A stretch of DNA of 43,982 bases from a virus: the UHGV virus genome UHGV-0179801. The stretch is one strand, 5' to 3'. The translations under genes were made by a program, and so were the position numbers. Under the pieces are notes generated by a model. That model did no database searches. It had not been told where the DNA came from and was given only the letters and a program-made list of their open reading frames with translations. How positions within the stretch are numbered: position 1 is the stretch's first letter; each line of letters opens with the position of its first letter. Below are positions 4,794 to 41,641 of this stretch, in pieces.

Positions 4794-4822
4794 TTGCACA
4801 CACCAATATAATAGGGTACTAT
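4794..4822 (+). promoter_or_regulatory. type-A promoter/operator cassette (TTGCAC-N17-TACTAT)
   Basis: TTGCACACACCAATATAATAGGGTACTAT; near-identical copies at 6601, 40223 and 18086(-); contains dyad AATAG-N4-CTATT. Confidence 0.6.
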
Positions 4823-4850: not shown

Positions 4851-5024
4851 ATGTTCAAAGAAAAAGACATAATGCACGAAAACGGCAAATACTGGGTTCT
4901 AAATGATAAAGGAGTGTACTGCGTAATGATTTCCGGGTTTACCCACGCTAAAGCTGATAGTGCATACGCTAGTTTAGATTTAGCGATAGCCCGCTGTGAT
5001 TATCTGGCGAGTAGAGACGCATAA
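4851..5024 (+). CDS. small protein (57 aa), rightward island 1
   Basis: Hand-found ORF: AGGAGA SD, ATG 4851, MFKEKDIMHENGKYWVLNDKGVYCVMISGFTHAKADSAYASLDLAIARCDYLASRDA, TAA 5024; own promoter and terminator; AT-rich. Confidence 0.55.
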   Translation: MFKEKDIMHENGKYWVLNDKGVYCVMISGFTHAKADSAYASLDLAIARCDYLASRDA

Positions 5025-5512: not shown

Positions 5513-6556
5513 TTATTCCCCTTTCAGATAATCAGCAACACGTTTATCGAGTTCCGCCATCTGCTTAAGCGTCAGCGGATTCCCGAAACCATCTACAGAT
5601 ATTACGCGAAACTCTTCCGGTGATATACCGCTGTTACGGAAAATCTTACCGCGTGTCGGCCCGAGTGCTTCATCCTGAAACCATGCCGGTTGTTGTTTCA
5701 GGAACTCGTAATAGGTTGTGTCCGCGCTTACCTGAGTTCCTCCGTCTGCACCCTTAGCCGCACGTTTTGCGCCTTTATCGAGGAAGTCGAACTCCGAGCT
5801 AATTACCGGAGCCGTGCACGACCGGCAGTTCGGATGGGCGGGGGGCATCGGCCCTTTACCAATTTCCCACGTCATCCCGTCTCTGGCTCTGCAAATCGTA
5901 CTTGTACGGCTGTCGAGGGTGGATACCCACTCGTACTTCTCGATGATGTCGTCGTTCTGACGGTACGTCTCGTTACGTGCTTCGTTGGACACGTGGGACA
6001 GCGCGGTGCGTATTACAGTAGCCGCATTGCGCTCAGAGACATCGGCCAGGCCACCCGCGCCAACAACATTCTTAACAATCTGCCGTGTGGTTTGGCCTTG
6101 TACAAATCCCATCTTAACGCCCGTTACCAGGCGCGCGACCTCCGCTTCGCCCCAGCCATCCATCAGCTTGGTGAAATCGACAGGCTTGTCACTTAGTGAC
6201 AGAGGTTGAAACTCGGCAGCGGCCCACACCTGCTCAGCGGTAGGAGTAATAAATTCTGCGTTAACATTGGTCGTCAGTGTTTTTACGTTCCACTCAGCCT
6301 CATATGCCGCCAGTTCCTTAAGGTCTTCTGTCAGCTTTGTTTGCCAGTCACCTGTAAGGCCTGCCAGTGCTTCTTCGAGGTCGCGTAACAGTTTATTCAG
6401 TCTGGCGGTGCTGCGACCGTCGTCGCCGAATAACAGCACCTGCCGTTTTATTTCGTCACGCATCTCCTGAATGAACGGTGTGAGGTCTTTCACCTCGCCG
6501 GATGCGGTGCGTTGCAGCCATATCTGGTGGCTGATTAAGGATGTAAGTAAGCTCAT
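5513..6556 (-). CDS. head morphogenesis protein (SPP1 gp7 / Mu F-like)
   Basis: ORF 5513..6613 trimmed to ATG 6556 (AGGAGG SD); 347 aa; HPNCRSC motif typical of MuF family; downstream of portal. Confidence 0.75.
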   Translation of the reverse strand: MSLLTSLISHQIWLQRTASGEVKDLTPFIQEMRDEIKRQVLLFGDDGRSTARLNKLLRDLEEALAGLTGDWQTKLTEDLKELAAYEAEWNVKTLTTNVNAEFITPTAEQVWAAAEFQPLSLSDKPVDFTKLMDGWGEAEVARLVTGVKMGFVQGQTTRQIVKNVVGAGGLADVSERNAATVIRTALSHVSNEARNETYRQNDDIIEKYEWVSTLDSRTSTICRARDGMTWEIGKGPMPPAHPNCRSCTAPVISSEFDFLDKGAKRAAKGADGGTQVSADTTYYEFLKQQPAWFQDEALGPTRGKIFRNSGISPEEFRVISVDGFGNPLTLKQMAELDKRVADYLKGE

Positions 6557-6600
6557 ATGCCCTCCTGTAGTATCGACAGTGTAACGCATAAAAATAATAT

Positions 6601-6629
6601 TTGCAGACACCAATATAATAGGGTACTAT
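6601..6629 (+). promoter_or_regulatory. type-A promoter/operator cassette (TTGCAG-N17-TACTAT)
   Basis: TTGCAGACACCAATATAATAGGGTACTAT followed by the same leader ...CGAAACGAGGAGATGA.AAATG as copy 4794. Confidence 0.6.
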
Positions 6630-6656
6630 TCAGTTATCGAAACGAGGAGATGAGAA

Positions 6657-7178
6657 ATGGTTACTACAGTAATTACTTTCCCTGCGTATGTAGGGGCGAA
6701 AATCTGCAGGGCGAAAAATGATGTGCGCTATTATTTGAACGCTTTTTACATAGACCCTGAAGGATTGATAGTTTCTACGGATGGTCACAGATTGTTCTGC
6801 GACAACGTGAAGACAAACGTCGAAACTGGAGTTCTAATAGACATCAAAGGGAGGGAGCCTTCTAAATTTAACTACGCGGAGGTAGACCACGACAACGGTA
6901 GTGTTTCTTTCTATGACGATAGTAGTGCGCTTGTATGTACACTTCCTATTGAAGTTGTAGACGGGAGATTTCCTTACTGGAGACGTGTGGCCGGCATTAC
7001 GCCGGGTTCAGTCGATAGCATAGGGTTCTCTCTGCGCTATTTGGCGGACGCGTACAAGATTTCTAAGGCATACAAAAATGAAATTGCCCGTTTCGATTTC
7101 CAGGACCAAACAAACGGATGCAAAATATCATTTTCAAACACTGCATTTATGGTGCTAATGCCAGCGCGATTTAAATAA
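6657..7178 (+). CDS. truncated DnaN (beta sliding clamp)-like protein, rightward island 2
   Basis: 173 aa; blocks DVRYYLN, TDGHRL, VDGRFPYWRRV, IGFSLRY, LMPARF match E. coli DnaN domain II and C-terminal half of domain III (from memory of DnaN). Confidence 0.8.
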   Translation: MVTTVITFPAYVGAKICRAKNDVRYYLNAFYIDPEGLIVSTDGHRLFCDNVKTNVETGVLIDIKGREPSKFNYAEVDHDNGSVSFYDDSSALVCTLPIEVVDGRFPYWRRVAGITPGSVDSIGFSLRYLADAYKISKAYKNEIARFDFQDQTNGCKISFSNTAFMVLMPARFK

Positions 7179-7182
7179 AACT

Positions 7183-7206
7183 AAGGCCCCGAAAGGGGCC
7201 TTTTCT
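7183..7206. terminator. bidirectional GC-hairpin terminator
   Basis: AAGGCCCC-GAAA-GGGGCCTT + TTTC; between 6657..7178(+) and portal stop 7207(-). Confidence 0.7.
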
Positions 7207-8679
7207 TTACTCCTGTTGCTGCTGCGCCGACTGCGGAATCTCTCCTGCTACCTGAGTAACAGCACCCAATGGCAACGGTGCATCTTCGATAGCGTTCTGA
7301 ATATCCTCGTCGGTCCAGTCGGTCACACCTGCCTTACGCAACGCCGCATAGTAAGCGGTAGCCGGTAGCAGGCCCGCGTTAATGTCCGCCATCCACTGAG
7401 CGCGGTCCTGGGCGGTCATCGGTTGCAGGAAGAACTCCATATTCAGTTTGAACTCAATCTCTGTGCCTTCACGCAGCCCAAGCATCGCCGCTACCCAGCG
7501 CAACGCATCTGTATACGCCATGCTTACATTACGTGCGATTGTCGCCATGACGGACGTATCCGCACCACGTTGCAGGCGGGCTGATTCGGCGGTGATTTGC
7601 TGCGTCGGGGTGATAAGCTGTGCGCCAATCTGAATTGCCTGATTCTCTTTATCCAGCATGTTCTGTTTGGCGAGGTTGTTCTCTCCCGCCTGAACCAGAA
7701 ACGCATTGCCGCCGTAGCCGATGTTATGGCCTGAACGAGACCCCATGCGCACGCCGTGTGGGTTAGCTTCTTTCCACTGTTCCATGCTCATGTTCTCACC
7801 TGGCGCAATGAACAGAGTGGGCTGGCCTACAACGAAGCTGGACTCCTCATTGTCCGCGCTGTTGCGGAAATGTCCGATATTAAGCTCAGCCAACGGCAGC
7901 AAAGGTGCATCATCAATGGTTGCGTCGTTGTTGCTCGCCCCAATGAACGTGAACGGTATTTTACCGCGCAGCTGTTCTCCGAGTTCCGGGAAGATTTCGA
8001 TTACGTCACCCTGAGCACCACCTTCGGCGTCGAAGCGGTAAATGCGCTGGCGGTAGCGCCCGTCAATCAAATCGAGAACGCGGTATTGTTCGCCGAATTT
8101 TGTTTCGAACTCCGCGCCCGGTTCTGAGTATTCCCACACCTCACGCAGCACGACCGTTGTCACACGGTTAACAGAACCGATGCGTGTCAGTCGCCAGTTG
8201 ATGATGTTCTCTGCGGTATAGAATGCGATTACCGGGTTTAATAACCCCGCGTTCTGCTCTGCCGCCGTTGCCGCGGCTGTCTCTGGGGCGTCCACCAGCA
8301 ACCCGCCGCGGCCAACCGAGTCAATCTCCATCAGCGTGTCCTGCGCGTGCTGCCACAACCCGACACCAGAACCGTCGGCATTACGTAACAGGTACTCCAG
8401 TTCAGGCGGGATAATTTGCTCGGGGTCTTTACGCATCACTGACCCCACCATCCCGGCCAGAGTACGTTTGGTGAAGTTGTAGCAGATAGCGCCGTTCTCG
8501 TATTCTTCCTGGCGCTGCGCAGCGTAGGTAGGCTCCGGCTCGTTCTTCCCGACGTTGCGAAGATAGCGGATAAGGTCGCCTTCCAGCGCGTGGCGTACCT
8601 TCTGCCATTTATCGAAGTGATGCAGCCATTCCCGGTGTTTTGTTTTAACACCCTGATTCTGACCGTTCATAGTTAACAT
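7207..8679 (-). CDS. portal protein
   Basis: 490 aa, AAGAGGA SD before ATG 8679; immediately downstream of terminase large subunit; size typical. Confidence 0.8.
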   Translation of the reverse strand: MLTMNGQNQGVKTKHREWLHHFDKWQKVRHALEGDLIRYLRNVGKNEPEPTYAAQRQEEYENGAICYNFTKRTLAGMVGSVMRKDPEQIIPPELEYLLRNADGSGVGLWQHAQDTLMEIDSVGRGGLLVDAPETAAATAAEQNAGLLNPVIAFYTAENIINWRLTRIGSVNRVTTVVLREVWEYSEPGAEFETKFGEQYRVLDLIDGRYRQRIYRFDAEGGAQGDVIEIFPELGEQLRGKIPFTFIGASNNDATIDDAPLLPLAELNIGHFRNSADNEESSFVVGQPTLFIAPGENMSMEQWKEANPHGVRMGSRSGHNIGYGGNAFLVQAGENNLAKQNMLDKENQAIQIGAQLITPTQQITAESARLQRGADTSVMATIARNVSMAYTDALRWVAAMLGLREGTEIEFKLNMEFFLQPMTAQDRAQWMADINAGLLPATAYYAALRKAGVTDWTDEDIQNAIEDAPLPLGAVTQVAGEIPQSAQQQQE

Positions 8680-8691
8680 TGAATAATCCTC

Positions 8692-9963
8692 TTAAAGTGC
8701 GAAAGTCACCGGGACGTTAATAACTGGTTTGCGAATCGGCATTTCATACGCAATTGGGTATGTGGTTCCGTCATTCTGATGGTCCACGCCGCCAGATTTA
8801 TCCGGTTCGCCGTTCTTGTCGTAAGCCTGTTGCTCAAGGCATCGCGCCGTAACCGGACAAGCCTGCTCGTTAATCATGACCATACCAGATTCAAGCGCCT
8901 TATTCATCGCCGATACTCGGTCTTTAACCGGTGGGTTTGCCGATTTTGCACGCACTTCGAAACCGGCCTGCTGTAACTGGGCGATGTCTGATGTACTGGC
9001 GTTGTTGCTTTTACGGTTTTTGCCGCTGGCGTCAGGATACATAACAATATAGTGGCCTTTACTTTTCCATCGCTCTGTTATCGCCCGCACCACATCTGGC
9101 GTGTCGAACATATCAACCAACTCGGCAACAGCGTGCCAGACTTTACCACGTTGCACGTAAACTGTGCTCGCCATGTGACCTACGTTAAAATCCTGCCCAA
9201 TATACAGAGTCTCGCCAGGCTTGATTGTTTCGCGACTGCTGTTTTTCCTGCGGTCGTAAGCGTAATAGACCGTTCCGGCTGTGAGGTTTACGAACTCGCC
9301 GTTGATGTAGGCATCAATCAACTGCCCCGGGTAGGTGTCGCGCAATGACTGCACATAATCTTCTGGCAGGAACGGGTTAGACAGGGTGGATGCCTGAATC
9401 ATCTCGTAACCGGGATTCTTTTTGACCACCCAGCGGTCATGTACGAAACGGAATCCCTCCGGCGTAGTGAACACGGAAACGGTATTAGCCGGTTTAGGTG
9501 TAATAGGTTTATATGTCCGCGGCAACTGGCGGTTACGGGCGATGACTTTGTTCCACGCGTGCTCGGCGTGCTCCATGTTAAGGGTGTCCAACTCGTCGAT
9601 TTTTGCGCGAAACGATTCGTAGCCAACGATTCGTGCTGGATTATCGAGAGTACGCAGGACAAAATCCCCGAATTGTCCGGATGATGTATAGATTATGTTG
9701 TCGGACTTATTGTATTTGTACCTCACGCCCCAGTCGGTGAGTTTTTCTTCCATACGAGGCGCAAGGATGAGGCGCACCAGGTCGTATGTCGGCTCGTACA
9801 TGGCGATGATAGAATCGCTACCACCTTCCATGCTGTCGAGTAGTGCAGAGTTGCACATAACTTCGGATTTGCCAGTGCCAAATCCCGCCACGAATGCCGG
9901 AAACTTGCAGTGCATTCCGAGAAACGCGCCTTGCGGTTCTGTCGCCGTGATATTAACGTTCAC
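8692..9963 (-). CDS. terL: terminase large subunit
   Basis: 423 aa; GTG 9963 with AAGGTGG SD; Walker A-like GFGTGKS; overlaps terS stop. Confidence 0.85.
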   Translation of the reverse strand: MNVNITATEPQGAFLGMHCKFPAFVAGFGTGKSEVMCNSALLDSMEGGSDSIIAMYEPTYDLVRLILAPRMEEKLTDWGVRYKYNKSDNIIYTSSGQFGDFVLRTLDNPARIVGYESFRAKIDELDTLNMEHAEHAWNKVIARNRQLPRTYKPITPKPANTVSVFTTPEGFRFVHDRWVVKKNPGYEMIQASTLSNPFLPEDYVQSLRDTYPGQLIDAYINGEFVNLTAGTVYYAYDRRKNSSRETIKPGETLYIGQDFNVGHMASTVYVQRGKVWHAVAELVDMFDTPDVVRAITERWKSKGHYIVMYPDASGKNRKSNNASTSDIAQLQQAGFEVRAKSANPPVKDRVSAMNKALESGMVMINEQACPVTARCLEQQAYDKNGEPDKSGGVDHQNDGTTYPIAYEMPIRKPVINVPVTFAL

Positions 9964-18057: not shown

Positions 18058-18086
18058 ATAGTATCCTATTATATTGGTGTGTGCAA
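18058..18086 (-). promoter_or_regulatory. type-A promoter/operator cassette, leftward early
   Basis: Minus strand TTGCACACACCAATATAATAGGATACTAT; plus strand also reads TTGCTA-N16-TATTAT (18045..18072). Confidence 0.6.
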
Positions 18087-18976: not shown

Positions 18977-21244
18977 ATGTCCGATGTAATTTTATCCTAC
19001 TCGTGGTCCCGCCGCAACGCGCGGGCGGAGAAAAAGGATATAAACGTCAGAACCACACACATGGCAACACTGGACGACCTGAAAGAGTTAATCCAGCCGC
19101 TTGATGCCGTGCGTGACGGGATTAACCCGAAGACAGCGCCCGGCTATATCACTGCCGCGTGCGACTCAACGCACAGCACCGTAAAAGACCCGGAAACAGG
19201 TGACTTTAAGCAGGCGCGTAAAGGTTTCTTTTATCGCTGTGACGCGTCTGTAAGCAAATCGTCGCTGGCGTATCTGGACTTCGACAGTGCAACACCGGAA
19301 GAGTATCAGGAAGCGGTGCGCCTGGTTAAGCGCAGCCGCCAGGCTATGTGCCTCTATACCACGGCATCTCATACCGATGAGTCTCCGCGCTTTCGTGTCG
19401 TCATGCCGCTGGCGCGCCCGGTTGAAGGCGGAGACATCATCCGAGTTCGCCACGGATTGCTGGAGCACTTCTTCAAAGGCATGGGCGCGGACCGCAGCGG
19501 GTTTACCTTGTCGCAGCCGATGTACCTGCCGCCGGTTGGTGCTACTGTTATCTGGTCGCGCCGCAACGACCTGATTGACCCGGACGAGTTACTGGAAGGC
19601 ATCCCGGATTACGAGGTGAGCAGCGCATCGGATTACCAGATACCAGAGGAACTGCGCACCGCGTTTACTGACGCGTTCGAGGCACTGGCGTTTGAGTACG
19701 GCGGCATCATGACACCACGCGGCCTTAAGATGCCAGCTACACCGAAACACGCAGAGAACTACAGCGACCCGACGCCGAGGCCAGATGACTTCCTGCTGTG
19801 CTTCCCGCGCGAAGGGTACGAAGCGCCGAACGTAACAATGATTCACGACACCGACATTACAGCAACCGAAGGCATGTTGCCGAAAGAGGTGTGGAAATAC
19901 GCGTGCGATGCGACCGGGCTGCCGTTCAGTGAAGTCGCAGAGGCCATCGGCTGGGGTGCACGAGAATCTGTCTCATGCAGCCTGGACGACCTGGAAGACG
20001 AGGATGACTCAGAGGAGGACGAGCTACCGGAACCGGTAAAGGCTGATTTCGTCGTAGAAGGGTACATGCCGTCGGATTGCATATGGGATATCGTCGGGGA
20101 ATCTGGCACGTACAAATCGTTCTATACTCTGGGGATGATGTACCTTAGCGCCGCCGGATACCGGTTCGCAGGGGCTGATACCCAGCGTTGCCACCATTTC
20201 TATATTGATGGTGAAGGTGGTGCGGCTACACGTACACGTATTGACGCACTCGCCGCTAAATATGGTGAGGAAGGTAAAGATTATGTACACGTCATCGACA
20301 TGGGTGAAGTCGGAAAACTGAAAAGCCTGATTAAGCTGATGCGAGAAACTGCGGGTGACGAGCCAATTGGGATGGTCGCGTTTGATACCCTCAACCAGAC
20401 GCTGGCCCTGACGATTGATAAGTTCGACGAGAACAGTTCGTCAACGGCAATCGGCATGGGTAAAGTTATCGCCATCCTGAAAGAAGTACGCGATGCAACT
20501 AAAGCCGCGGTAGGCGTCGTACACCATACGCCGAAGGGTGGAAAGAAAGCCCGCGGCAGCGGGGCATTGTATGCAGGTGTTGATGTGGAACTGACAATCG
20601 AACGTGCTACCGACCGCCAGATAAACGTATACCACTCGAAATTTAAGCACGGGCCACAACAGAAAACGGTTGGGATGGTGCTCGAGTCGGTACAGTTCCG
20701 TGAAGCGCCGCCGCCGAAAGAGTACCGCGCGGTTGAGTTCATCGGTAACACAGAGGAATATGGAACAATCGTAAACCTAGACTTGCCCGAGCCGCACAAA
20801 GCGCTTGTTCTGATGCCGTGGGGCTTCGAGCCGTTCAAAACTGACGAGGAGAAAGAGCGGGAAGAAGGGCTGACGAAGGAAGGTAAAGAAAACGTACGTA
20901 AAACCGTAGAGAACGTCGTCAACAGTTCGGAGGCCACGATACTGGCAGCGTTTGAACTGGCGGAAGGAACCTACAACGGCAACGAAGGTATCACGGTAGC
21001 CGCAGCTAATAAGCTCGCACAGTCCGACCCCAACGCAAAGGCGTTTAACTCCAAAGAAGCTATAGAACGTGGGAAGATTAAGAAAATGGTTGAGGCTGGA
21101 TATCTTGTTCCGGGGACTGACGAAAACAATCAGATAATCCCAGGCCGTTACAGGCTGAACACCCGAATAACCGATAACAAGATTCCGAAGACAATATACG
21201 AACCGAATGAAATGTTAACAGTGACAGAGGAGGATTTGGAATGA
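18977..21244 (+). CDS. primase/helicase (primase-polymerase-like N-domain + RecA/RepA-type ATPase)
   Basis: 755 aa; YLDFDS and RFRVVMPLARP in N-half; Walker A GESGTYKS, Walker B VAFDTLNQ, VHHTPKGG; acidic linker; ends EEDLE. Confidence 0.8.
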   Translation: MSDVILSYSWSRRNARAEKKDINVRTTHMATLDDLKELIQPLDAVRDGINPKTAPGYITAACDSTHSTVKDPETGDFKQARKGFFYRCDASVSKSSLAYLDFDSATPEEYQEAVRLVKRSRQAMCLYTTASHTDESPRFRVVMPLARPVEGGDIIRVRHGLLEHFFKGMGADRSGFTLSQPMYLPPVGATVIWSRRNDLIDPDELLEGIPDYEVSSASDYQIPEELRTAFTDAFEALAFEYGGIMTPRGLKMPATPKHAENYSDPTPRPDDFLLCFPREGYEAPNVTMIHDTDITATEGMLPKEVWKYACDATGLPFSEVAEAIGWGARESVSCSLDDLEDEDDSEEDELPEPVKADFVVEGYMPSDCIWDIVGESGTYKSFYTLGMMYLSAAGYRFAGADTQRCHHFYIDGEGGAATRTRIDALAAKYGEEGKDYVHVIDMGEVGKLKSLIKLMRETAGDEPIGMVAFDTLNQTLALTIDKFDENSSSTAIGMGKVIAILKEVRDATKAAVGVVHHTPKGGKKARGSGALYAGVDVELTIERATDRQINVYHSKFKHGPQQKTVGMVLESVQFREAPPPKEYRAVEFIGNTEEYGTIVNLDLPEPHKALVLMPWGFEPFKTDEEKEREEGLTKEGKENVRKTVENVVNSSEATILAAFELAEGTYNGNEGITVAAANKLAQSDPNAKAFNSKEAIERGKIKKMVEAGYLVPGTDENNQIIPGRYRLNTRITDNKIPKTIYEPNEMLTVTEEDLE

Positions 21245-22910: not shown

Positions 22911-23179
22911 TTTACCAACTCTACCGCGCCGTAGACAGGCGGGATAACACAGAGGCGCTATGGCTGTTACGTGCGCCGTCAGGGGCGCACCTGATGGAAG
23001 AGATGGCGTACTTAGGCAAAGTACCTCGGCCTAAAGATATAGGCCGTCACGTGTCGCAGATTAAGCGCACGACTTTCGCAAAACCTGACTTCTATGTCTT
23101 CGAGTCGATGTACAGCTGGGCCTTGCATTGCGACCATAAGACACAGCATTTAATCGACCAGTGGGAGAACAGGGTATGA
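22907..23179 (+). CDS. hypothetical protein (90 aa)
   Basis: ORF 22838..23179 trimmed to ATG 22907 (ATGA coupling). Confidence 0.55.
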   Translation: MIYQLYRAVDRRDNTEALWLLRAPSGAHLMEEMAYLGKVPRPKDIGRHVSQIKRTTFAKPDFYVFESMYSWALHCDHKTQHLIDQWENRV

Positions 23180-24417
23180 TTCTAAAAGAACGCGGCGGCA
23201 ATAACGATGTGCACGCCTTATTGTCACCATCAGGCGCTAAAAAGTGGTTAAGTTGCGCCGCATCACTGGCCTGTGAAAAAGATATTCCTAACACGTCCGG
23301 TAAAGCAGCCGTTACAGGAACCGCGTGTCACACTATAGCTGAGGTCCATCTAAACCAGTACATCAAAGGCACTGCGCTGCCGTTAGAGCGTGAAGTCGGT
23401 GCCTACGTGCTGGATGAGGGTAAAGGCCAGATTAAGGCGCTAATCAGCCCGATGAAAGGCGCTGTACTGATTACGGCGGACATGATTGAGCAAGTGCGCA
23501 AGTACACCGACTACTGCAAACCGATTATTGACGTCGCGACTTATGCCAAGCTGGAAATGCGCGTCAATCTTACTGAGGTATTGCATCCTGGTTATGAAGA
23601 CGTCGAGACGTTCGGGACAGCCGACCTTGTTGCCGTTCAGGAGCTGGCTAACTCCGACGAGCACATGCTTATCGTCGGCGACCTTAAAACCGGACGGCAT
23701 CGTGTCGAAGCGAAAGAAAACAAACAGCTTATGCTATACGCTCTCGGTGTTTATCGCCGACTCAAGAGACGTTATAACATCACCGTGGTTCGTCTGGTCA
23801 TCTTCCAGCCCTACGCTGGTGGTGCGTCGGAGTGGGACATCTCGGTTGAAGGCCTTGAACTGTTCGCTAAGTTTGCGCAGAAACGCGCACTGTTAGCTCT
23901 TGATGCGTATTTCCGTGGTAAGAAGAACCTGAAAGCATCGGATTTCAAGCCGTCTGTCGATGGTTGTCAGTGGTGTCGGTTCTCTGAACAATGCGCCGCG
24001 CGTACAAAGACGGTTAATTCTGTACTGGCAGAAGAACTGGAAGACGACTTTGCGCTGGAACTTACACCAGAGCAACTCGTAGCTGAGTATGAGAAGTTGC
24101 CGTTGTTGCGCCAGCACATCGACAAGGTTGAGAAAGCTATGGCCGCCGCGTTGCATTCCGGTAAGAAAGTGCCAGGGTACAAGCTGGTTGAAGGTAAGAT
24201 GGGCAACCGTGCGTGGAAAGACGCGGAGAAAGTGGCAGAACTGTACGGCGACAAGCTGACTAAAGAAGTGCTCATGACACCGACCGAAGCGGTTAAAGTA
24301 ATACCGGAAGAAGAACTGAAAGACTTCATTACCCGTAAGCCTGGCGCGCCATGCGTCGCAACGGCAGACGACAAACGGCCTGAATGGAATCAGGTTAGTG
24401 AAGAAGATTTGGAATAA
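23176..24417 (+). CDS. DUF2800 PD-(D/E)XK, Cas4-like nuclease
   Basis: ATG 23176 (ATGA coupling); LSPSGAKKWLSCAASL N-terminus, DLKTGRH..EAKENKQL core, CQWCRFSEQC Cys cluster; ends SEEDLE. Confidence 0.75.
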   Translation: MILKERGGNNDVHALLSPSGAKKWLSCAASLACEKDIPNTSGKAAVTGTACHTIAEVHLNQYIKGTALPLEREVGAYVLDEGKGQIKALISPMKGAVLITADMIEQVRKYTDYCKPIIDVATYAKLEMRVNLTEVLHPGYEDVETFGTADLVAVQELANSDEHMLIVGDLKTGRHRVEAKENKQLMLYALGVYRRLKRRYNITVVRLVIFQPYAGGASEWDISVEGLELFAKFAQKRALLALDAYFRGKKNLKASDFKPSVDGCQWCRFSEQCAARTKTVNSVLAEELEDDFALELTPEQLVAEYEKLPLLRQHIDKVEKAMAAALHSGKKVPGYKLVEGKMGNRAWKDAEKVAELYGDKLTKEVLMTPTEAVKVIPEEELKDFITRKPGAPCVATADDKRPEWNQVSEEDLE

Positions 24418-24516: not shown

Positions 24517-25146
24517 ATGGGCATTAAACTGAATCTGCGTAAAGTAAACACTGCATGGGTTAACGTATTCGAACGCGCTGCCGACTCTGAGGACAAGAAA
24601 ACCGGTAAACTGATTAAGGGTAAATACCAGGTTACGGTTCTTATGCAGCCTGACCACCCTCAAATCGACGCGCTTTACGACACCGCGCTGGAAGTTGTAA
24701 CAGAGGCAATCGGGACCGCTGCTGCTGAAAAATGGATGAAGGCCAACTACGGTGTAGACCACCACGCAGATAAATGCTGCGTCCGTGACCTGGCAATGCG
24801 GGATAATCCGATTGAGGATTTTGAAGAAGGTCTGTATTTCCGCGCCACTAACAACCGTCAACCGGTGATTATGACATCGGCTAAAGGTGAAAAACAAACC
24901 GAGCCTGATTTCAACATCGATGGGCAGGAAGTAGAAGGCGAGCAGGTGTACAGCGGGTGTGTAGCAAACGTATCTGTAGAGTTATGGTGGCACAAAGAAT
25001 GGAAAAACCTGTGCGCTACCATCCTCGGCATCAAGTATGCTGGTGAAGGTAAACGCTTCGGCGGCTCCAGTGTAGTAGCGAGCACCGACGACCTGGAAGA
25101 CGACGAAGAAGATGGAGCACCACGCCGCGAACGTCGCCGTCGTTAA
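24517..25146 (+). CDS. DUF2815 ssDNA-binding-like protein
   Basis: 209 aa; position between DUF2800 nuclease and PolA as in the known module; tail STDDLEDDEEDGAPRRERRRR. Confidence 0.65.
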   Translation: MGIKLNLRKVNTAWVNVFERAADSEDKKTGKLIKGKYQVTVLMQPDHPQIDALYDTALEVVTEAIGTAAAEKWMKANYGVDHHADKCCVRDLAMRDNPIEDFEEGLYFRATNNRQPVIMTSAKGEKQTEPDFNIDGQEVEGEQVYSGCVANVSVELWWHKEWKNLCATILGIKYAGEGKRFGGSSVVASTDDLEDDEEDGAPRRERRRR

Positions 25147-36918: not shown

Positions 36919-39341
36919 TATTTAAACCCCGGCGCGTTTCTTGTGGCCTTGCGGGCCTTGCTAATCTTACTGTTGCTGTTCTGCAAAGACGCAGCCACTT
37001 GCTCTTCGATGATGATACGCAGACGTCCTTCGTCATCTTGTTCAGTAGACACATTGCCAATCTGACTCGATGTGTTATTTACGATGGTAACATTAGATGG
37101 GCCACTATTTCCGCTATTATTGCCGTTTAACTGCTGCCGTGTTTGGCTTGCGTTTACCGCGCGCCCCGCCCCCGCCATCTTGATAATCTCTGGGCCGCGC
37201 TCACCGACAAGATAGCTGCCGCCAGCGTTCATTTGCCCGCCCTGTTCGCGGAATCCGGTTAAGGCTAACGCTTGGGTACTCGCAACCGTTGATGTGATGC
37301 CCGCCATCGCCGGTGCGCTGTTTGTCCCTAGGGTAGCCAGGGACGCCATAGCTGCAGCGGGGGCATACGCTGCAGCAATCGCCGCTCCGGTAGCCGATGC
37401 TGTCGCGATGGACGCCGCGGATGCCGTTTGGCCTGTAATCATGTTTTTCAGGTACTCCACCCCCATCTGTGTTAGCCCTGAAACGACCGATGACAGGATT
37501 GCGTTGCCGAGGTTTGCCATTGCTTCGCTAGCGGTCTGAGTACCATTAATAAGTCCGACTATGGAGCTGGACGCGGAAGCACCCACAGCGTCCAGGGAGT
37601 CCATAAGCATATTGTTCCACTCGGATTGGTTGCGGAAACGCTCCTCGGCAGCGGCAGCCAGCCCATCGTTATATTGCTTGTCCAGTTCCGCCCGTGCCTG
37701 CAACGCGACTTCATGCACGGAGTTTTCTTGTGCCTCGTACTCCTCTATAACCGCAAGCCTTTTCTGCCGCTCGAGCTGTAAGTTAGCGATAGGGTCTATT
37801 GACGCCAGAACCGCCACACCTTGTTGCAGTTTTTTCTGTTCCTCGGCTAACTCTTTATCAATAGCGTCTTGTCGTTTTTGCCCGTATTGAAGAACTATTG
37901 CTGTTTTCGCCTTTTCGTATTCTTCAGCAGTTAGCGCCCCTTCTTTTCGGTATTTAGCGGCCTCCTTAAGTTTCTGCTGTTCCTGCGCGTTAATAGCCTT
38001 TAACTCATCGTTGTTCTGACGAGCCAAAGTGTCGAGATAATCTTGCGCCTGTTTACGCAATTGCTCCGCTTTCTTAGCGGCGGCTTTCGCGTCTTTGTCG
38101 TTGGTGTTTCCTGTCCCACCAGTCCCGCCCTTTTTATTAACAAGGCTGGCCAAGTCAATTTCTTGCTTCCTGCGCTCGTCGTACTGCTTGCGCTGCTCCT
38201 CAATTTCTTTCTTGCGCTGCTTAGACCTGTTGGTAATGGCCTGTGATTCGGCCTCTGCACGTTTTATGCTAGCGTCATACGCGGCGTCAGCCTCTGCGGT
38301 CAGGTTTTTAAATGTGAGCGCTGCCGTTTTGCTCGGGTCAAACACGTCGGCAAGGGTCTGGCCAAGCGCTACGGCGTAATCGTCAATGCGCTGGAACCAC
38401 GCAATAACCTCGTGGAATGTCTGCTGAATGTCAGGCAACCATTCACGGATAGCATCTGGAATAGTCCCCAGCGAGTCTGACATATCCGCGGATTTGTCCT
38501 CGGTATCGAATGCCAGGTCATTCAGGGCATCAGAAATAAACTTGAACGACTCATTGAACAGCGTCACCCAATCCTGGAGCGTGGCTGCTATCTCATTAGA
38601 CACTATAGCGTCGGTGAGCGCCGTTACTGCGTCTTCTGCCAACGCAGCTTGTTCGCCTACGGCGTCGCCAAAACCAGACTGCGCTACCGCAAGAACAAGG
38701 CCGTCGAAGGAGTCGGCGAGGCTCGACAACTGACCATCTAATGTCTTCGAGCGCGTCTCCATCGCCCCGGCGAAATCGGTGTTGCCGATGTTTAACAGAT
38801 ATTTCTGAATCTCTTCGGAGTTCTTTTTAACCGTGGTGGTAACGCCGCGGAACGTGAACGACACTGTATCCGCCTGTTGCGACGACTTGATGCCAAACTC
38901 TTTTAGTCGCTCAAACTCAAAGGTACTGGCGTCGGCAACTGCCTCAATCATCTGATTAAGGTCTTTACCCATAGCCGCCGCGGTGTTGCCGTAGGAGATT
39001 AATGCCTCTTTGCTGGGGTTCAGGCCCAGAGCCACCAGCTTAGTAAAGCCTTCCACCGCCTGATTAAGCCCGTATGGTGTTTCTTTTGCGAACTGTTGCA
39101 GGACGCTGAAAGCCTTAGCGGCATTCTCAGCGCTCCCGGTCATCGTGATGAGGCCAGAGTTCAGCTTATCGAAGTTTCGCTGGGATGCCACCAGCGCACT
39201 GAACACCTGCTTGGCGGTTTCCAGGCTGACAACGGCAGCGGCGGCCGCCCCCGCCGCCTTAGTAAGCCCGTTCAGTTGGGATGTGGTTTTATCGACGCCG
39301 GTCGATGATACTCGTACTATCAAGCTAGCGGTATCAGCCAT
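36918..39341 (-). CDS. tail tape measure protein
   Basis: ORF 36918..39356 (TTG) trimmed to ATG 39341; 807 aa, long Ala/Gln/Lys/Glu coiled-coil centre, follows G/GT chaperones. Confidence 0.85.
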   Translation of the reverse strand: MADTASLIVRVSSTGVDKTTSQLNGLTKAAGAAAAAVVSLETAKQVFSALVASQRNFDKLNSGLITMTGSAENAAKAFSVLQQFAKETPYGLNQAVEGFTKLVALGLNPSKEALISYGNTAAAMGKDLNQMIEAVADASTFEFERLKEFGIKSSQQADTVSFTFRGVTTTVKKNSEEIQKYLLNIGNTDFAGAMETRSKTLDGQLSSLADSFDGLVLAVAQSGFGDAVGEQAALAEDAVTALTDAIVSNEIAATLQDWVTLFNESFKFISDALNDLAFDTEDKSADMSDSLGTIPDAIREWLPDIQQTFHEVIAWFQRIDDYAVALGQTLADVFDPSKTAALTFKNLTAEADAAYDASIKRAEAESQAITNRSKQRKKEIEEQRKQYDERRKQEIDLASLVNKKGGTGGTGNTNDKDAKAAAKKAEQLRKQAQDYLDTLARQNNDELKAINAQEQQKLKEAAKYRKEGALTAEEYEKAKTAIVLQYGQKRQDAIDKELAEEQKKLQQGVAVLASIDPIANLQLERQKRLAVIEEYEAQENSVHEVALQARAELDKQYNDGLAAAAEERFRNQSEWNNMLMDSLDAVGASASSSIVGLINGTQTASEAMANLGNAILSSVVSGLTQMGVEYLKNMITGQTASAASIATASATGAAIAAAYAPAAAMASLATLGTNSAPAMAGITSTVASTQALALTGFREQGGQMNAGGSYLVGERGPEIIKMAGAGRAVNASQTRQQLNGNNSGNSGPSNVTIVNNTSSQIGNVSTEQDDEGRLRIIIEEQVAASLQNSNSKISKARKATRNAPGFK

Positions 39342-39666
39342 GATTTCTACCTTCAAAGATTGCTTCTAAGCCCATGATAATGTCTATCTCGAACAGGCTA
39401 AGCTGTTTTTGCGTAACATCGAGATAGGCTTTCAGGTCTTGCCACGTAACGGATTCTCTTGCAAACAATACTACAGCGTCCTCGCGCACGTGTCGCGTAA
39501 ACTTAATGTCACAGTACGTCTCAAAGGTGGATATAAAAAGGGGCGGGCATTCTAGCCCACCCCGTCGCGCTGCACGTTTTTTCTTATCGATTACACCCAT
39601 CGCGATAAGCGCCTGTTCGTGTCCGTCAGCTATAGAATCAAACTCTCTGATTTTATGCTTGTCCAC
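39334..39666 (-). CDS. T-part of tail assembly chaperone (probably made as G-T fusion by -1 frameshift)
   Basis: -1 frame relative to 39699..40115 is open from the G stop through 39334; candidate slip at G GAA AAG|TAG (39702..39708). Confidence 0.5.
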   Translation of the reverse strand: MDKHKIREFDSIADGHEQALIAMGVIDKKKRAARRGGLECPPLFISTFETYCDIKFTRHVREDAVVLFARESVTWQDLKAYLDVTQKQLSLFEIDIIMGLEAIFEGRNHG

Positions 39667-40222: not shown

Positions 40223-40251
40223 TTGCACACCCCAATATAATAGGGTACTAT
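40223..40251 (+). promoter_or_regulatory. type-A promoter/operator cassette (TTGCAC-N17-TACTAT)
   Basis: TTGCACACCCCAATATAATAGGGTACTAT; opposite strand offers TTGGTG-N16-TATTAT towards chaperone gene. Confidence 0.6.
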
Positions 40252-40281
40252 TCACTTACACCAACAATGGAGGAGTTTAAA

Positions 40282-40473
40282 ATGTCAAGTTTACCAGTTT
40301 CCTTAATTCTGTTTGCACTACTCGCTTATTTTGCGCCTTTCCTGGTTGCATATTTCCGCAACCATAAAGCGAAGTTAGCGATATTCATGGCTAACCTGTT
40401 TCTTGGCTGGATTCTGCTGCCGTGGGTATTTATTTTAATCTGGGCTTGCAACTCGAATGTCAAAGAGAAGTGA
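40282..40473 (+). CDS. superinfection-immunity-like membrane protein (Imm_superinfect type)
   Basis: ORF 40267 trimmed to ATG 40282 (GGAGG SD); 2 TM; YFAPFLVAYFRNHKAKLAIFMANLFLGWILLPW resembles the Imm family motif (memory). Confidence 0.6.
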   Translation: MSSLPVSLILFALLAYFAPFLVAYFRNHKAKLAIFMANLFLGWILLPWVFILIWACNSNVKEK

Positions 40474-40510
40474 GCTAGTATAGGACAAATCCTAAGCACG
40501 AGGAATAAGC

Positions 40511-41641
40511 ATGGCCAGGAAGAAAATAACCGACGAACAGTTGCAGGAAGAATTGAACGCCGGTATGAAGAATATCGACATCGCTCGTAAATACGGCATC
40601 TCAGACCGCGTTATTCGCATCCGTAAAGCGAAGCTGGCAAAGAAAGGCGTAGGTCATGGGCGCGACGTTAGCCACCTTGTGCCAGATGGCTACAAGATTA
40701 AAGGAACGTCGTCACTTGTCGATGAGTTCGGCAACACTAAATTGCAATGGGTTAAGACCGACACCGATGCTGAACGTCAGGTTGAACTGATGAAAGCCGT
40801 GGTTGAAGGTATGAAGTCAGAGATTACCCCGGTTGCGCCTGTTAAAGCGACTCGAGCCAAACGTGACGATAAACTGCTCAATCTTTACACTGTGTCTGAT
40901 TTCCATCTCGGTATGCTTGCATGGGCCGACGAGAGTGGCGACGACTGGGACATGAAGATTGCAGAAGACCTGTTCTCTCGCTGGTTCGACGCAGCGTTTC
41001 AGAAAGCGCCGGACGCAGGAACGGGCGTTATTAACCTGCTTGGTGACCTTGCGCACTTCGATAGTCTGGATGCCGTTACGCCGGCAAGCGGTCATGTTCT
41101 TGACGCAGACACGCGCTATCAGAAACTGGTCCGCTACATGATTCGTATGGTCCGCCGTGTCGTTGATATGGCCCTTGTTAAGCATAAAAATGTTCGCTTG
41201 CTTATTGTGCAAGGGAACCACGACGAGAGTGGCATGATTTGGCTGGCTGAGATGTTCAGTACGCTATACGACAACGAGCCGCGTGTGTTCGTCGATACGT
41301 CACCGGATGTTTACAAGATGGCGCGACACGGCAAAACAACGTTGTTCTTTCACCATGGACATAAAGCACGCTTCGACGCTATCGAGCCGGTTATGATTGC
41401 CAAGTTCCGCAAAGCGTTCGGCGAGAGTGTTTACAGCTACGCTCACGTAGGGCACCTGCACCATCAGAAGATTGTAGAAAGCCGTAACATGATTGTTGAG
41501 CAGCACCGCACTTTAGCGGCTAAAGATGCCTACGCCTCCCGCGGCGGATGGATGTCAGGCCGTAGTGCAAACGTAATTACTTATAGCGCCGAATATGGCG
41601 AGGTCGCGCGTTTAACTATTTCACCGGAGATGCTGGGATGA
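40511..41641 (+). CDS. HTH + calcineurin-like metallophosphoesterase
   Basis: 376 aa; N-terminal HTH NIDIARKYGISDRVIRIR; DFHLG, GDLAHFD, GNHD, HHGH, GHLHH metallophosphatase motifs. Confidence 0.75.
   Translation: MARKKITDEQLQEELNAGMKNIDIARKYGISDRVIRIRKAKLAKKGVGHGRDVSHLVPDGYKIKGTSSLVDEFGNTKLQWVKTDTDAERQVELMKAVVEGMKSEITPVAPVKATRAKRDDKLLNLYTVSDFHLGMLAWADESGDDWDMKIAEDLFSRWFDAAFQKAPDAGTGVINLLGDLAHFDSLDAVTPASGHVLDADTRYQKLVRYMIRMVRRVVDMALVKHKNVRLLIVQGNHDESGMIWLAEMFSTLYDNEPRVFVDTSPDVYKMARHGKTTLFFHHGHKARFDAIEPVMIAKFRKAFGESVYSYAHVGHLHHQKIVESRNMIVEQHRTLAAKDAYASRGGWMSGRSANVITYSAEYGEVARLTISPEMLG

Follow-up and report, generated by a model that had tools for sequence, protein, structure and literature searches.

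A beta-clamp fragment encoded in the head-gene block of a Kagunavirus and its putative clamp-binding-motif pocket

What might a phage gain from a sliding-clamp homologue that lacks the parts known to close the clamp into a ring? This question is raised by a Kagunavirus (Guernseyvirinae), a phage of E. coli, whose genome was analysed here as one stretch of 43,982 nucleotides (the window) and in which a gene for such a fragment lies between the head-morphogenesis and portal genes, antisense to both as well as to terL. The family to which it belongs already has an annotation, in most cases 'sliding clamp' or else the erroneous 'RusA-like resolvase', and literature searches for a functional study of the short family returned annotation-level mentions only. 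The shortness of such phage polIII-beta homologues was remarked by Kazlauskas and Venclovas in 2011 (PMC3201878), according to whom these forms cover the second and third domains and who did not discuss their function, and the record of phage Bcep781 notes a short subunit fragment. An earlier claim of novelty was therefore overstated, as the shortness has been on record since Bcep781 and 2011. In contrast to the 2011 description, however, only half of the third domain has been kept in the fragment described here, and the conserved core corresponds to the pocket that binds clamp-binding motifs (CBMs).

The gene and its transcription signals

The locus comprises the following features:

6657..7178, plus strand: fragment gene, ATG start, 173 aa, PHROG 3007 family, coding for the ring-less beta-clamp fragment
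6645..6649, plus strand: ribosome-binding site AGGAG, 7 nt 5' of the ATG, read straight from the sequence
6601..6629, plus strand: putative promoter element TTGCAGACACCAATATAATAGGGTACTAT, of which the window has four near-identical copies, this one included
7183..7210, both strands: intrinsic terminator for both directions, formed by hairpin AAGGCCCCGAAAGGGGCCTT and T-runs on both strands
5513..6613 (as listed), antisense to the fragment gene: head-morphogenesis gene
7207..8679, antisense to and convergent with the fragment gene: portal gene
8692..9963, antisense to the fragment gene: terL

The first-pass annotation had described an opposite-strand ORF inside the head-gene block that is visibly richer in A + T than its surroundings, and both observations hold, with a G + C content of 0.435 for the ORF as compared to 0.534 and 0.558 in the two flanking genes and 0.506 over the whole window. 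The dN/dS ratio between alleles of the fragment gene is 0.08-0.15, and ORF 6657..7178 is thus a real gene under purifying selection; the predicted pI of its product is 6.7. The true start of the neighbouring head-morphogenesis gene is likely the ATG at 6559, preceded by AGGAGG.

That the gene has its own promoter and terminator, as had been proposed from the sequence, is likewise supported, although the promoter is to be considered putative. TTGCAGACACCAATATAATAGGGTACTAT contains a putative -35 element (TTGCAG) and a putative -10 element (TACTAT), separated by a 17-nt spacer with a TATAAT inside. A generic sigma-70 scan made no call at 6601..6629, where TTGCAG-17-TACTAT scores 3/6 and 4/6, respectively. 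However, four copies of the 29-bp block with at most two mismatches are present in the window, at 4794, 6601 and 40223 on the plus strand and at 18058 on the minus strand, as compared to zero expected. Each copy precedes a gene or gene group, the start of which follows 25-45 nt downstream, and an alignment of the four copies reveals conservation limited to the block itself. The block is also invariant in three related Kagunaviruses, one of which carries a different gene downstream. The same promoter class also heads the putative early operon, and it is presumably active, and active early. At the other end of the gene, the hairpin at 7183..7202 comprises 8 bp, is GC-rich and gives rise to a terminator call on both strands, common to the convergent fragment and portal genes; it is kept in relatives, with a compensatory change from C-G to T-A in SHAK7693.

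Clamp homology, missing ring parts and retained pocket

With respect to homology, the profile and structure comparisons that had been suggested as a check place the fragment in the DnaN fold. A single-sequence phmmer search against the PDB matches DnaN with E = 1e-5, and the family profile does so with E = 2.6e-22, well beyond chance, whereby profile positions 8-127 correspond approximately to DnaN 138-263 and positions 118-172 to DnaN 315-366; in the single-sequence comparison, residues 117-171 align with DnaN 312-365. The AlphaFold2 model is confident and compact (pLDDT 93.8, pTM 0.90), Foldseek matches it to the E. coli clamp with E = 4e-8, with the beta-alpha-beta-beta-beta repeats of the clamp fold and a clamp-like interdomain geometry, and all its strong fold matches are clamps. 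Profile alignment and model also bear out the architecture originally deduced, namely domain II followed by only the C-terminal half of domain III:

6657..6995, plus strand: residues 1-113, equivalent to DnaN domain II and the interdomain connector (E. coli ~125-250)
7005..7175, plus strand: residues 117-173, counterpart of the C-terminal half of domain III in DnaN (E. coli ~312-366)

The first part carries KNDVRYYLN, TDGHRL and VDGRFPYWRRV and is modelled as E3-7, H8-17, E30-50 and E59-100, with no helix at 64-72, so that the second inner helix of domain II is a loop in the model. The second part (H126-138, E145-148, E155-158, E164-167) carries IGFSLRY and the C-terminal MPAR and supplies subsite II as well as part of subsite I of the pocket. 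The five sequence blocks by which the homology had first been recognised are located as follows:

DVRYYLN: fragment residues 22-28, E. coli DnaN 150-156
TDGHRL: fragment residues 41-46, E. coli DnaN 172-177
VDGRFPxxRRV: fragment residues 101-111, E. coli DnaN 237-247
IGFxxxY: fragment residues 122-128, E. coli DnaN 317-323
MPxR: fragment residues 168-171, E. coli DnaN 362-365

While the initial numbering was correct for TDGHRL, IGFxxxY and MPxR, it was off by one for DVRYYLN and by about three for VDGRFPxxRRV.

Full DnaN (PF00712/PF02767/PF02768; TIGR00663) is thus homologous to the fragment in sequence and fold and has the same pocket residues in the same order, including the C-terminal MPxR and the (K/H)(N/Q)DVRYYLN loop. 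However, with 173 aa and about 1.5 domains the fragment falls short of the three clamp-fold domains and ~366 aa of DnaN, and it is far below the family cut-offs: the only Pfam match is PF02767 with E = 0.02, under the gathering score, and TIGR00663 yields 16.4 bits as compared to a cut-off of 137.65. In further contrast to full DnaN, it is phage-borne and optional.

The fragment lacks the whole of domain I and, from domain III, some 60 residues (DnaN ~252-311). A truncated clamp is also known from E. coli itself, where beta*, a 26-kDa product that is UV-inducible, arises from an internal start in dnaN and comprises domains II-III, reportedly forms a ring and stimulates Pol III; it likewise lacks domain I and keeps the pocket, but unlike the fragment it retains the whole of domain III. 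The published residues of the DnaN dimer interface, I78, F106 and R103 in domain I and I272, L273, E298 and E304 in domain III (2024 review), all reside in segments without a counterpart in the fragment. Therefore, every known interface residue is missing, in agreement with the original proposal that the ring-forming parts are absent, and the fragment would be a soluble, non-ring and presumably monomeric protein.

In turn, the pocket appears to have been kept. Conservation was counted across 172 short-family members, with the residues of subsites I and II taken from the 2024 review: of the 13 residue-bearing columns with the highest conservation, 10 correspond to published residues of these subsites. 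The fragment itself agrees with E. coli at 15 of the 17 pocket positions listed, the exceptions being N320, replaced by S, and M364, replaced by A; V344 was left unmapped. Conservation of the individual pocket residues among the 172 members (E. coli numbering) is as follows:

P242: 99%
G174: 99%
R152: 98%
T172: 95%
H175: 94%
M362: 92%
P363: 91%
L155: 90%
Y323: 90%
R365: 88%
R246: 80%

The pocket blocks are hence conserved among homologues, as the first-pass annotation would have it, and retention of the hydrophobic CBM pocket is strongly supported by the alignment. However, as these residues are also the most conserved ones in DnaN generally, their retention shows that the pocket is constrained and says nothing on the ligand. 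Outside the pocket, lysines K20, K134 and K137 are conserved in the family, on a helix and a loop that face the DNA in the clamp, and the median pI of the family is 7.7 as compared to 5.25 for DnaN, both of which would also fit a contact with DNA; beyond these few lysines, the 172-member alignment revealed no second surface conserved across the family.

Distribution and genomic setting of the family

The fragment matches the PHROG 3007 profile over practically its full length (E = 1e-35, residues 13-172 on positions 12-186 of 190). The same architecture of 165-220 aa recurs in at least about 145 clusters at 50% identity, and almost all of the best 150 family representatives have a length in this range. 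One of the relatives, recovered by tblastn, is Bcep781 gp15, recorded as 'DNA Pol III b subunit fragment'. The matches found on plasmids, by contrast, are full-length dnaN paralogues of 422 aa and do not have the short architecture.

Within Kagunavirus, the gene is part of an accessory, moron-like cassette that extends from promoter to terminator. The sister phage 22664BS2 has no homologue of the fragment anywhere in its genome and harbours a different gene behind the same promoter in the same slot, and at 80% nucleotide identity or more there are 23 records for the fragment gene as compared to 115 for the portal gene. Other small cargo occupies the slot in relatives, the cassette thus being swappable. 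An antisense position in the head block is found in Kagunavirus, EP23 and Bcep781, but it is not a rule for the family, as the gene lies in a same-strand operon in 7 of 10 IMG/VR groups.

The picture is different in the Skatevirus clade, where at the same identity threshold 117 records contain the fragment as compared to 70 for the helicase; there it equals or exceeds the helicase in spread and conservation and is nearly core. In Serratia phage Eta the gene order is SSB, ParB-like, fragment, helicase, and in temperate IMG/VR groups it is either cI, cro, fragment, SF2 helicase and primase, or the fragment followed by a DnaB-like helicase. The gene also adjoins those of DUF5906/NrS-1-type primase-polymerases, and elsewhere its neighbours include anti-restriction, Lar-like and ParB-like genes. 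According to database annotation, Skatevirus VSt472, phage Eta and the temperate phages whose order begins with cI and cro carry the fragment and no DNA polymerase, and in such phages the gene is nearly core within the replication module. VSt472 and Eta presumably depend on Pol III and the clamp of the host. The gene is accordingly found regardless of the replication strategy of the phage, and natural phages with and without the cassette as well as clades with and without an annotated polymerase are available for comparison.

Possible functions

Since the pocket is kept and the ring-forming parts are lost, the fragment probably captures partners of the host clamp instead of acting as a clamp. 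In the phage studied here we consider it, with a probability of roughly 0.4, to be a decoy that sequesters host clamp clients. Domain II together with the abutting half of domain III would represent the minimal piece able to form the CBM pocket, and the fragment might bind the QLxLF-type motifs of clients such as Pol III alpha/epsilon, delta, Hda, Pol II/IV/V, MutS/L and ligase away from the DNA. The net effect would most likely be competitive sequestration, with clients being pulled off the host clamp, and the phage would benefit from a weakened replication control and repair of the host during infection. According to the 2024 review, binding of the delta subunit to monomeric beta is about 50 times tighter than to dimeric beta, and a monomeric pocket could therefore be an effective trap.

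In line with a decoy, the cassette is accessory and absent from the sister phage, and the Kagunavirus has its own T7-like replisome (polymerase, helicase-primase, SSB, exonuclease) in which no canonical CBM is apparent: the motif Q-phi-x-L-F was found in none of the phage helicase-primase, exonuclease, SSB, polymerase and helicase. It is this combination of an own replisome with an optional cassette behind a putatively early promoter that makes the decoy the most likely reading here. Two candidate ligands encoded by the phage itself were rejected. Relatives carrying the fragment do not conserve the perfect QLSLF of the tail-chaperone region (39334..39666, minus strand), which hence is a chance occurrence, and the TEEDLE C-terminal tails of the helicase-primase and the exonuclease persist in a Kagunavirus without the fragment gene and thus are not linked to it.

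A pocket that works would make the family a compact natural competitor for CBMs, directed at the same site that is being pursued for antibiotics (griselimycins, CBM peptides), and would open a new way of taking over the host or of capturing its polymerase. Other phages interfere with the same network by different means, and gp8 of N4 is said to act against the delta subunit. Twort Gp168 (PDB 7evp) is described in the review as a phage inhibitor of the host clamp system. Like the role proposed for the fragment, both target the host clamp network at takeover; however, these small proteins are unrelated to it and act by binding to the clamp channel or to the clamp loader, whereas the fragment would imitate the docking site.

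A strong general decoy would, however, hurt those carrier phages that lack a polymerase, and the nearly core status of the fragment in phages without an annotated polymerase argues against a blanket clamp poison and leaves room for a role as adaptor. For the family as a whole, which is large and has been mislabelled, we only tentatively suggest a sponge or hook for CBMs, a minimal imitation of the docking site on the bacterial replication hub, that might rewire the host clamp interactome in either of two ways: by stripping, in which selected clients such as Hda, translesion polymerases, mismatch repair and the delta wrench would be taken off the clamp, or by capture of Pol III for phages lacking a polymerase. 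This would be the first viral copy of only the pocket of a sliding clamp.

The adaptor itself would bind a host CBM enzyme in the pocket, for instance Pol III alpha/epsilon, the clamp loader, Pol I or ligase, and keep it at the replisome of the phage or on phage DNA by means of a second, lineage-specific surface or a direct contact with DNA, and hence would recruit instead of sequester. The position of the gene within the replication modules of polymerase-less phages and beside helicase and primase genes, its near-core status in Skatevirus, and the conserved lysines and raised family pI all point in this direction. In Kagunavirus, however, the gene lies outside the replication module and is dispensable, the replisome proteins have no canonical CBM, and the TEEDLE tails do not depend on its presence; moreover, the family shares no second surface apart from the few lysines, and 'no polymerase' is a statement of database annotation. 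An adaptor is somewhat less likely than the decoy.

A genuine processivity factor, be it a new self-assembled ring (perhaps by pairing of the half-domains), a form inserted into or associated with host beta, or a non-ring, DNA-binding clamp of the UL42/UL44 type that serves the phage polymerase or one of the host, appears improbable. Such a function is given in most database records, the fold is that of a clamp, and a surface covered in DnaN by the missing half is probably exposed on the half-domain, which would make oligomerisation plausible; in addition, the family pI is above that of ring clamps, the criterion that Kazlauskas and Venclovas used for non-ring clamps. However, the fragment lacks domain I together with the half of domain III that bears the interface, the model has one inner helix fewer, the genus includes phages without the gene, and no clamp-loader gene is annotated in the genome of the closest annotated relative. 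Herpesvirus UL42/UL44/BMRF1 consist of two full domains with a basic DNA-binding face and bind the C-terminus of their own polymerase, whereas the fragment has 1.5 domains, is not basic and coexists with a phage polymerase without evident CBM.

Equally improbable seems a decoy in the service of counter-defence, whose clamp-mimicking pocket would soak up some factor, encoded by the host or a prophage, by which the pocket of the clamp is attacked or read; examples would be a SocB-type clamp-targeting toxin or a defence effector with a CBM. Such a role would suit a variable, swappable cassette behind a shared promoter, in a slot that holds other small cargo, as well as the anti-restriction, Lar-like and ParB-like neighbours elsewhere and the occurrence of the gene irrespective of replication strategy. 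However, we know of no defence system acting through the clamp pocket in enterobacteria, a PADLOC search of the fragment gave no match (its library covers defence, not anti-defence), and a housekeeping role would better suit a gene that is nearly core in Skatevirus.

Finally, a decaying remnant of a captured dnaN, as the Bcep781 note might suggest, and a RusA-like Holliday junction resolvase, as PHROG 3007 is labelled, are both refuted, the former by the low dN/dS, the architecture shared by so many clusters and the confident compact model, the latter by a Pfam search in which no RusA family matched the fragment even at E = 10 and by a fold that is that of a clamp. Accordingly, neither 'DNA polymerase III sliding clamp/beta subunit' nor 'RusA-like resolvase', the labels given in hundreds of phage genomes, fits a protein of 1.5 domains without the known ring-forming parts.

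Homology, architecture and pocket

The single fragment sequence, when compared to the PDB, aligns to E. coli DnaN in three collinear pieces (E 1e-5), and the fragment-family profile, the search profile being built from 24 homologues, reaches E 2.6e-22 with the same protein. An AlphaFold2 model of the fragment (pLDDT 93.8, pTM 0.90) likewise retrieves E. coli clamps as the top Foldseek hits (E 4e-8), so that profile and structure searches both place it in the DnaN fold. Profile positions 8-127 correspond to DnaN 138-263 and positions 118-172 to DnaN 315-366. Since V111 (DnaN V247) and I122 (DnaN I317) are linked by only about 10 residues, DnaN ~252-311 as well as 1-124 are without counterpart, and the dimer-interface residues named in a 2024 beta-clamp review (I78, F106, I272, L273, R103, E298, E304) all lie within these missing segments, in line with the architecture proposed in the first-pass annotation. 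The DnaN blocks from which that proposal was drawn are indeed present, although the residue numbering of two of them was slightly off. The model has two long helices only, the second inner helix of domain II being a loop; this helix seems to be retained in longer family members.

According to the same review, the pocket for clamp-binding motifs comprises subsite I (R152, L155, T172, G174, H175, R176, L177, P242, R246, V247, V360, M362) and subsite II (H175, N320, Y323, V344, M362, P363, M364, R365). In 172 short-family proteins aligned to the family profile, mostly 50%-identity representatives plus closer homologues, ten of the 13 most conserved residue-bearing columns are pocket residues so defined.

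Most conserved columns in the 172 short-family proteins (DnaN residue, conservation, pocket residue)
P242, 99%, yes
G174, 99%, yes
R152, 98%, yes
Y154, 97%, no
T172, 95%, yes
H175, 94%, yes
M362, 92%, yes
P363, 91%, yes
D150, 91%, no
G239, 90%, no
L155, 90%, yes
Y323, 90%, yes
R365, 88%, yes

As judged from sequence, this shows the pocket to be under constraint; the same residues are the most conserved ones in DnaN generally, and conservation does not tell the ligand. The reading of the fragment as a clamp pocket without the ring-forming parts is well supported.

The fragment stays below the threshold of Pfam PF02767 and scores 16 bits with TIGR00663 against a cut-off of 138. It matches PHROG 3007 (E 1e-35), a family labelled 'RusA-like Holliday junction resolvase', but nothing in the Pfam or fold searches backs this label, and a widespread annotation of the family is hereby corrected.

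The fragment gene and its promoter-like block

The antisense gene in the head block is real, with pairwise dN/dS among its alleles of 0.08-0.15, and consists of the following elements:
6657..7178, +, fragment ORF, 173 aa
7 nt before the fragment ATG, +, ribosome-binding site AGGAG, from the sequence
7183..7202, both strands, terminator hairpin, from terminator prediction

It runs antisense to both flanking structural genes and is AT-richer than these (GC 0.435 vs 0.534 and 0.558), and the terminator is further borne out by a compensatory change in the equivalent hairpin of phage SHAK7693. Many relatives match in megablast only over ~6589..7204, that is, the promoter-to-terminator unit. Small accessory genes are exchanged at the site that separates the head-morphogenesis and portal genes, because the sister Kagunavirus vB_EcoS-22664BS2 carries an unrelated 94-aa gene without a Pfam match in the same slot behind the same promoter (L002 3255..3539, equivalent to window ~6657..7178), and no fragment homologue in any frame. 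With 23 records at >=80% identity for the fragment gene vs 115 for the adjacent portal gene, the fragment gene is optional in Kagunavirus.

The promoter proposed at 6601..6629 is missed by a generic sigma-70 scan but represents a conserved 29-bp block present in four copies, TTGCA[CG]AC[AC]CCAATATAATAGG[GA]TACTAT, of which none are expected in the window by chance:
4794..4822, +, upstream of a 57-aa ORF (4851..5024)
6601..6629, +, upstream of the fragment gene
18058..18086, -, upstream of a leftward small-gene operon starting at ~18023
40223..40251, +, upstream of the superinfection-immunity and Mre11-like pair (40267..41641)

Conservation among the copies ends at the block edges, and no change in the block is seen across three other Kagunaviruses, including vB_EcoS-22664BS2 with its different gene. 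It heads the leftward operon and every opposite-strand island in the structural gene block, the islands being AT-rich (GC ~0.40-0.43). As the spacer is fully conserved and includes TATAAT, the block suggests a regulator site in addition to a promoter.

The superinfection-immunity protein (40267..40473, +; PF14373, E 1.6e-12) and the Mre11-like exonuclease (40511..41641, +) form another opposite-strand island, within the tail gene block. The mechanically called ORF 5513..6613 (-) starts with TTG at 6613, within the promoter region; the true start of this head-morphogenesis gene is likely the ATG at 6559, which is preceded by AGGAGG. Since the bidirectional terminator 7183..7202 stands between it and the portal gene, the head-morphogenesis gene must have read-through or its own promoter.

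Family spread and gene neighbourhood

An exhaustive profile search gave 19,254 matches, the best 150 of which are almost all 165-220 aa long, full-length DnaN entering only at about E 3e-25. Homologues occur in 229 phage records, including Kagunavirus, Dhillonvirus, Skatevirus, Roufvirus, Naesvirus (Bcep781) and Serratia phage Eta as well as Klebsiella, Proteus, Vibrio and Shewanella phages, and similar short predicted structures in BFVD come from phages of Pantoea, Burkholderia, Rhodococcus, Gordonia and Bacillus. The fragment is not a new family: the Bcep781 record already annotates a 'DNA Pol III b subunit fragment', and the fBC-Eco01 paper names the homologue simply sliding clamp. A functional study of the short family was not found in the literature, and Twort Gp168 is the only phage strategy against the clamp mentioned in the 2024 review.

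Among 80 IMG/VR loci in 10 groups, the fragment lies within a same-strand operon in seven groups. The order in Eta is SSB, ParB-like, fragment, helicase; in Skatevirus, where the fragment equals or exceeds the helicase in spread and conservation, an anti-restriction and a ParB-HTH gene precede it. In temperate phages cI, a cro-like gene and the fragment are followed by SF2 helicase plus primase, a DnaB-like helicase or an NrS-1/DUF5906 primase-polymerase. ParB-HTH/KorB-type proteins recur as neighbours in three phages, and in EP23 the fragment adjoins an Nmad5 nucleotide-modification-associated protein (E 2e-58); no evident clamp-binding motif marks the termini of these neighbours, which lie in other fragment-bearing loci:
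L003 5601..6365
L004 3768..4577
L006 2241..3056
L007 4131..4952

A separate instance of a mobile-element clamp gene is the full-length (~422 aa) dnaN paralogue of 117 large plasmids, which lies among dam and rdgC genes in the two inspected, Citrobacter and Klebsiella plasmids (L017 8536..9804, L018 8482..9759); one of these has ssb nearby, the other dinG.

Possible sequestration or recruitment of host clamp clients

The fragment region is 86-89% identical in nucleotides to the Kagunavirus (Guernseyvirinae) E. coli siphophages SHAK7693, phage 26 and fBC-Eco01, annotated relatives having the order large terminase, portal, fragment (opposite strand), head-morphogenesis protein, then decoration, spanin, scaffold and capsid. 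SHAK7693, the closest annotated relative, is annotated with helicase-primase, exonuclease, gp2.5-like SSB, A-family DNA polymerase, resolvase, methyltransferase, second helicase and Mre11-like exonuclease, and no clamp loader; window replication ORFs were assigned from this annotation, most of the listed genes being located in the window.

The function is put forward as a hypothesis with two live versions. Common to the family might be the binding of clamp-binding motifs by a ring-free pocket. For this phage, sequestration of host clamp clients is the favoured reading because the gene is an optional cassette, shares its promoter class with a putative early operon (presumably also its timing), and accompanies a complete, clamp-independent replisome, none of whose replication proteins has a canonical clamp-binding motif. 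Such a monovalent competitor would presumably hit free clients harder than the DNA-bound holoenzyme; the binding of the delta wrench is ~50-fold tighter to monomeric than to dimeric beta (2024 review).

Nearly as good is an adaptor whose pocket would recruit host clamp clients rather than sequester them. It fits polymerase-less phages better than a decoy, VSt472 and Eta having no DNA polymerase annotated across their whole database records, and would agree with the conservation of lysines K20, K134 and K137 and the raised pI (family median 7.7 vs 5.25 for DnaN, the latter calculated on an E. coli sequence checked against the aligned stretches and key positions). Three further readings rank below both: a true clamp, a decoy in counter-defence and a dead remnant of dnaN. 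The main value of the fragment lies in a testable way, probably not recognised so far, in which a phage would interfere with the host clamp network or capture it.

A perfect consensus motif, QLSLF, in ORF 39334..39666 (-), just upstream of the tape-measure gene, is regarded as a coincidence, as fragment-bearing relatives have QNIGMF instead. The SHAK7693 record (OR594180.1, vB_EcoM_SHAK7693) is filed as Autographiviridae/Kayfunavirus under a name implying a myovirus, probably in error, since at 89% identity its genome runs collinear with the present region of Kagunavirus-type siphophage. Finally, helicase-primase and exonuclease share (T/S)EEDLE as their C-terminus, and the gp2.5-like SSB has STDDLEDDEED followed by a basic tail (ORFs among 18977..21244, 23161..24417 and 24517..25146, +), the corresponding EP23 termini being TDDDLKD and TDEDLSNE. 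By analogy with T7 gp4 and gp2.5 these acidic tails look like a common docking motif, which is kept in a Kagunavirus without the clamp fragment.
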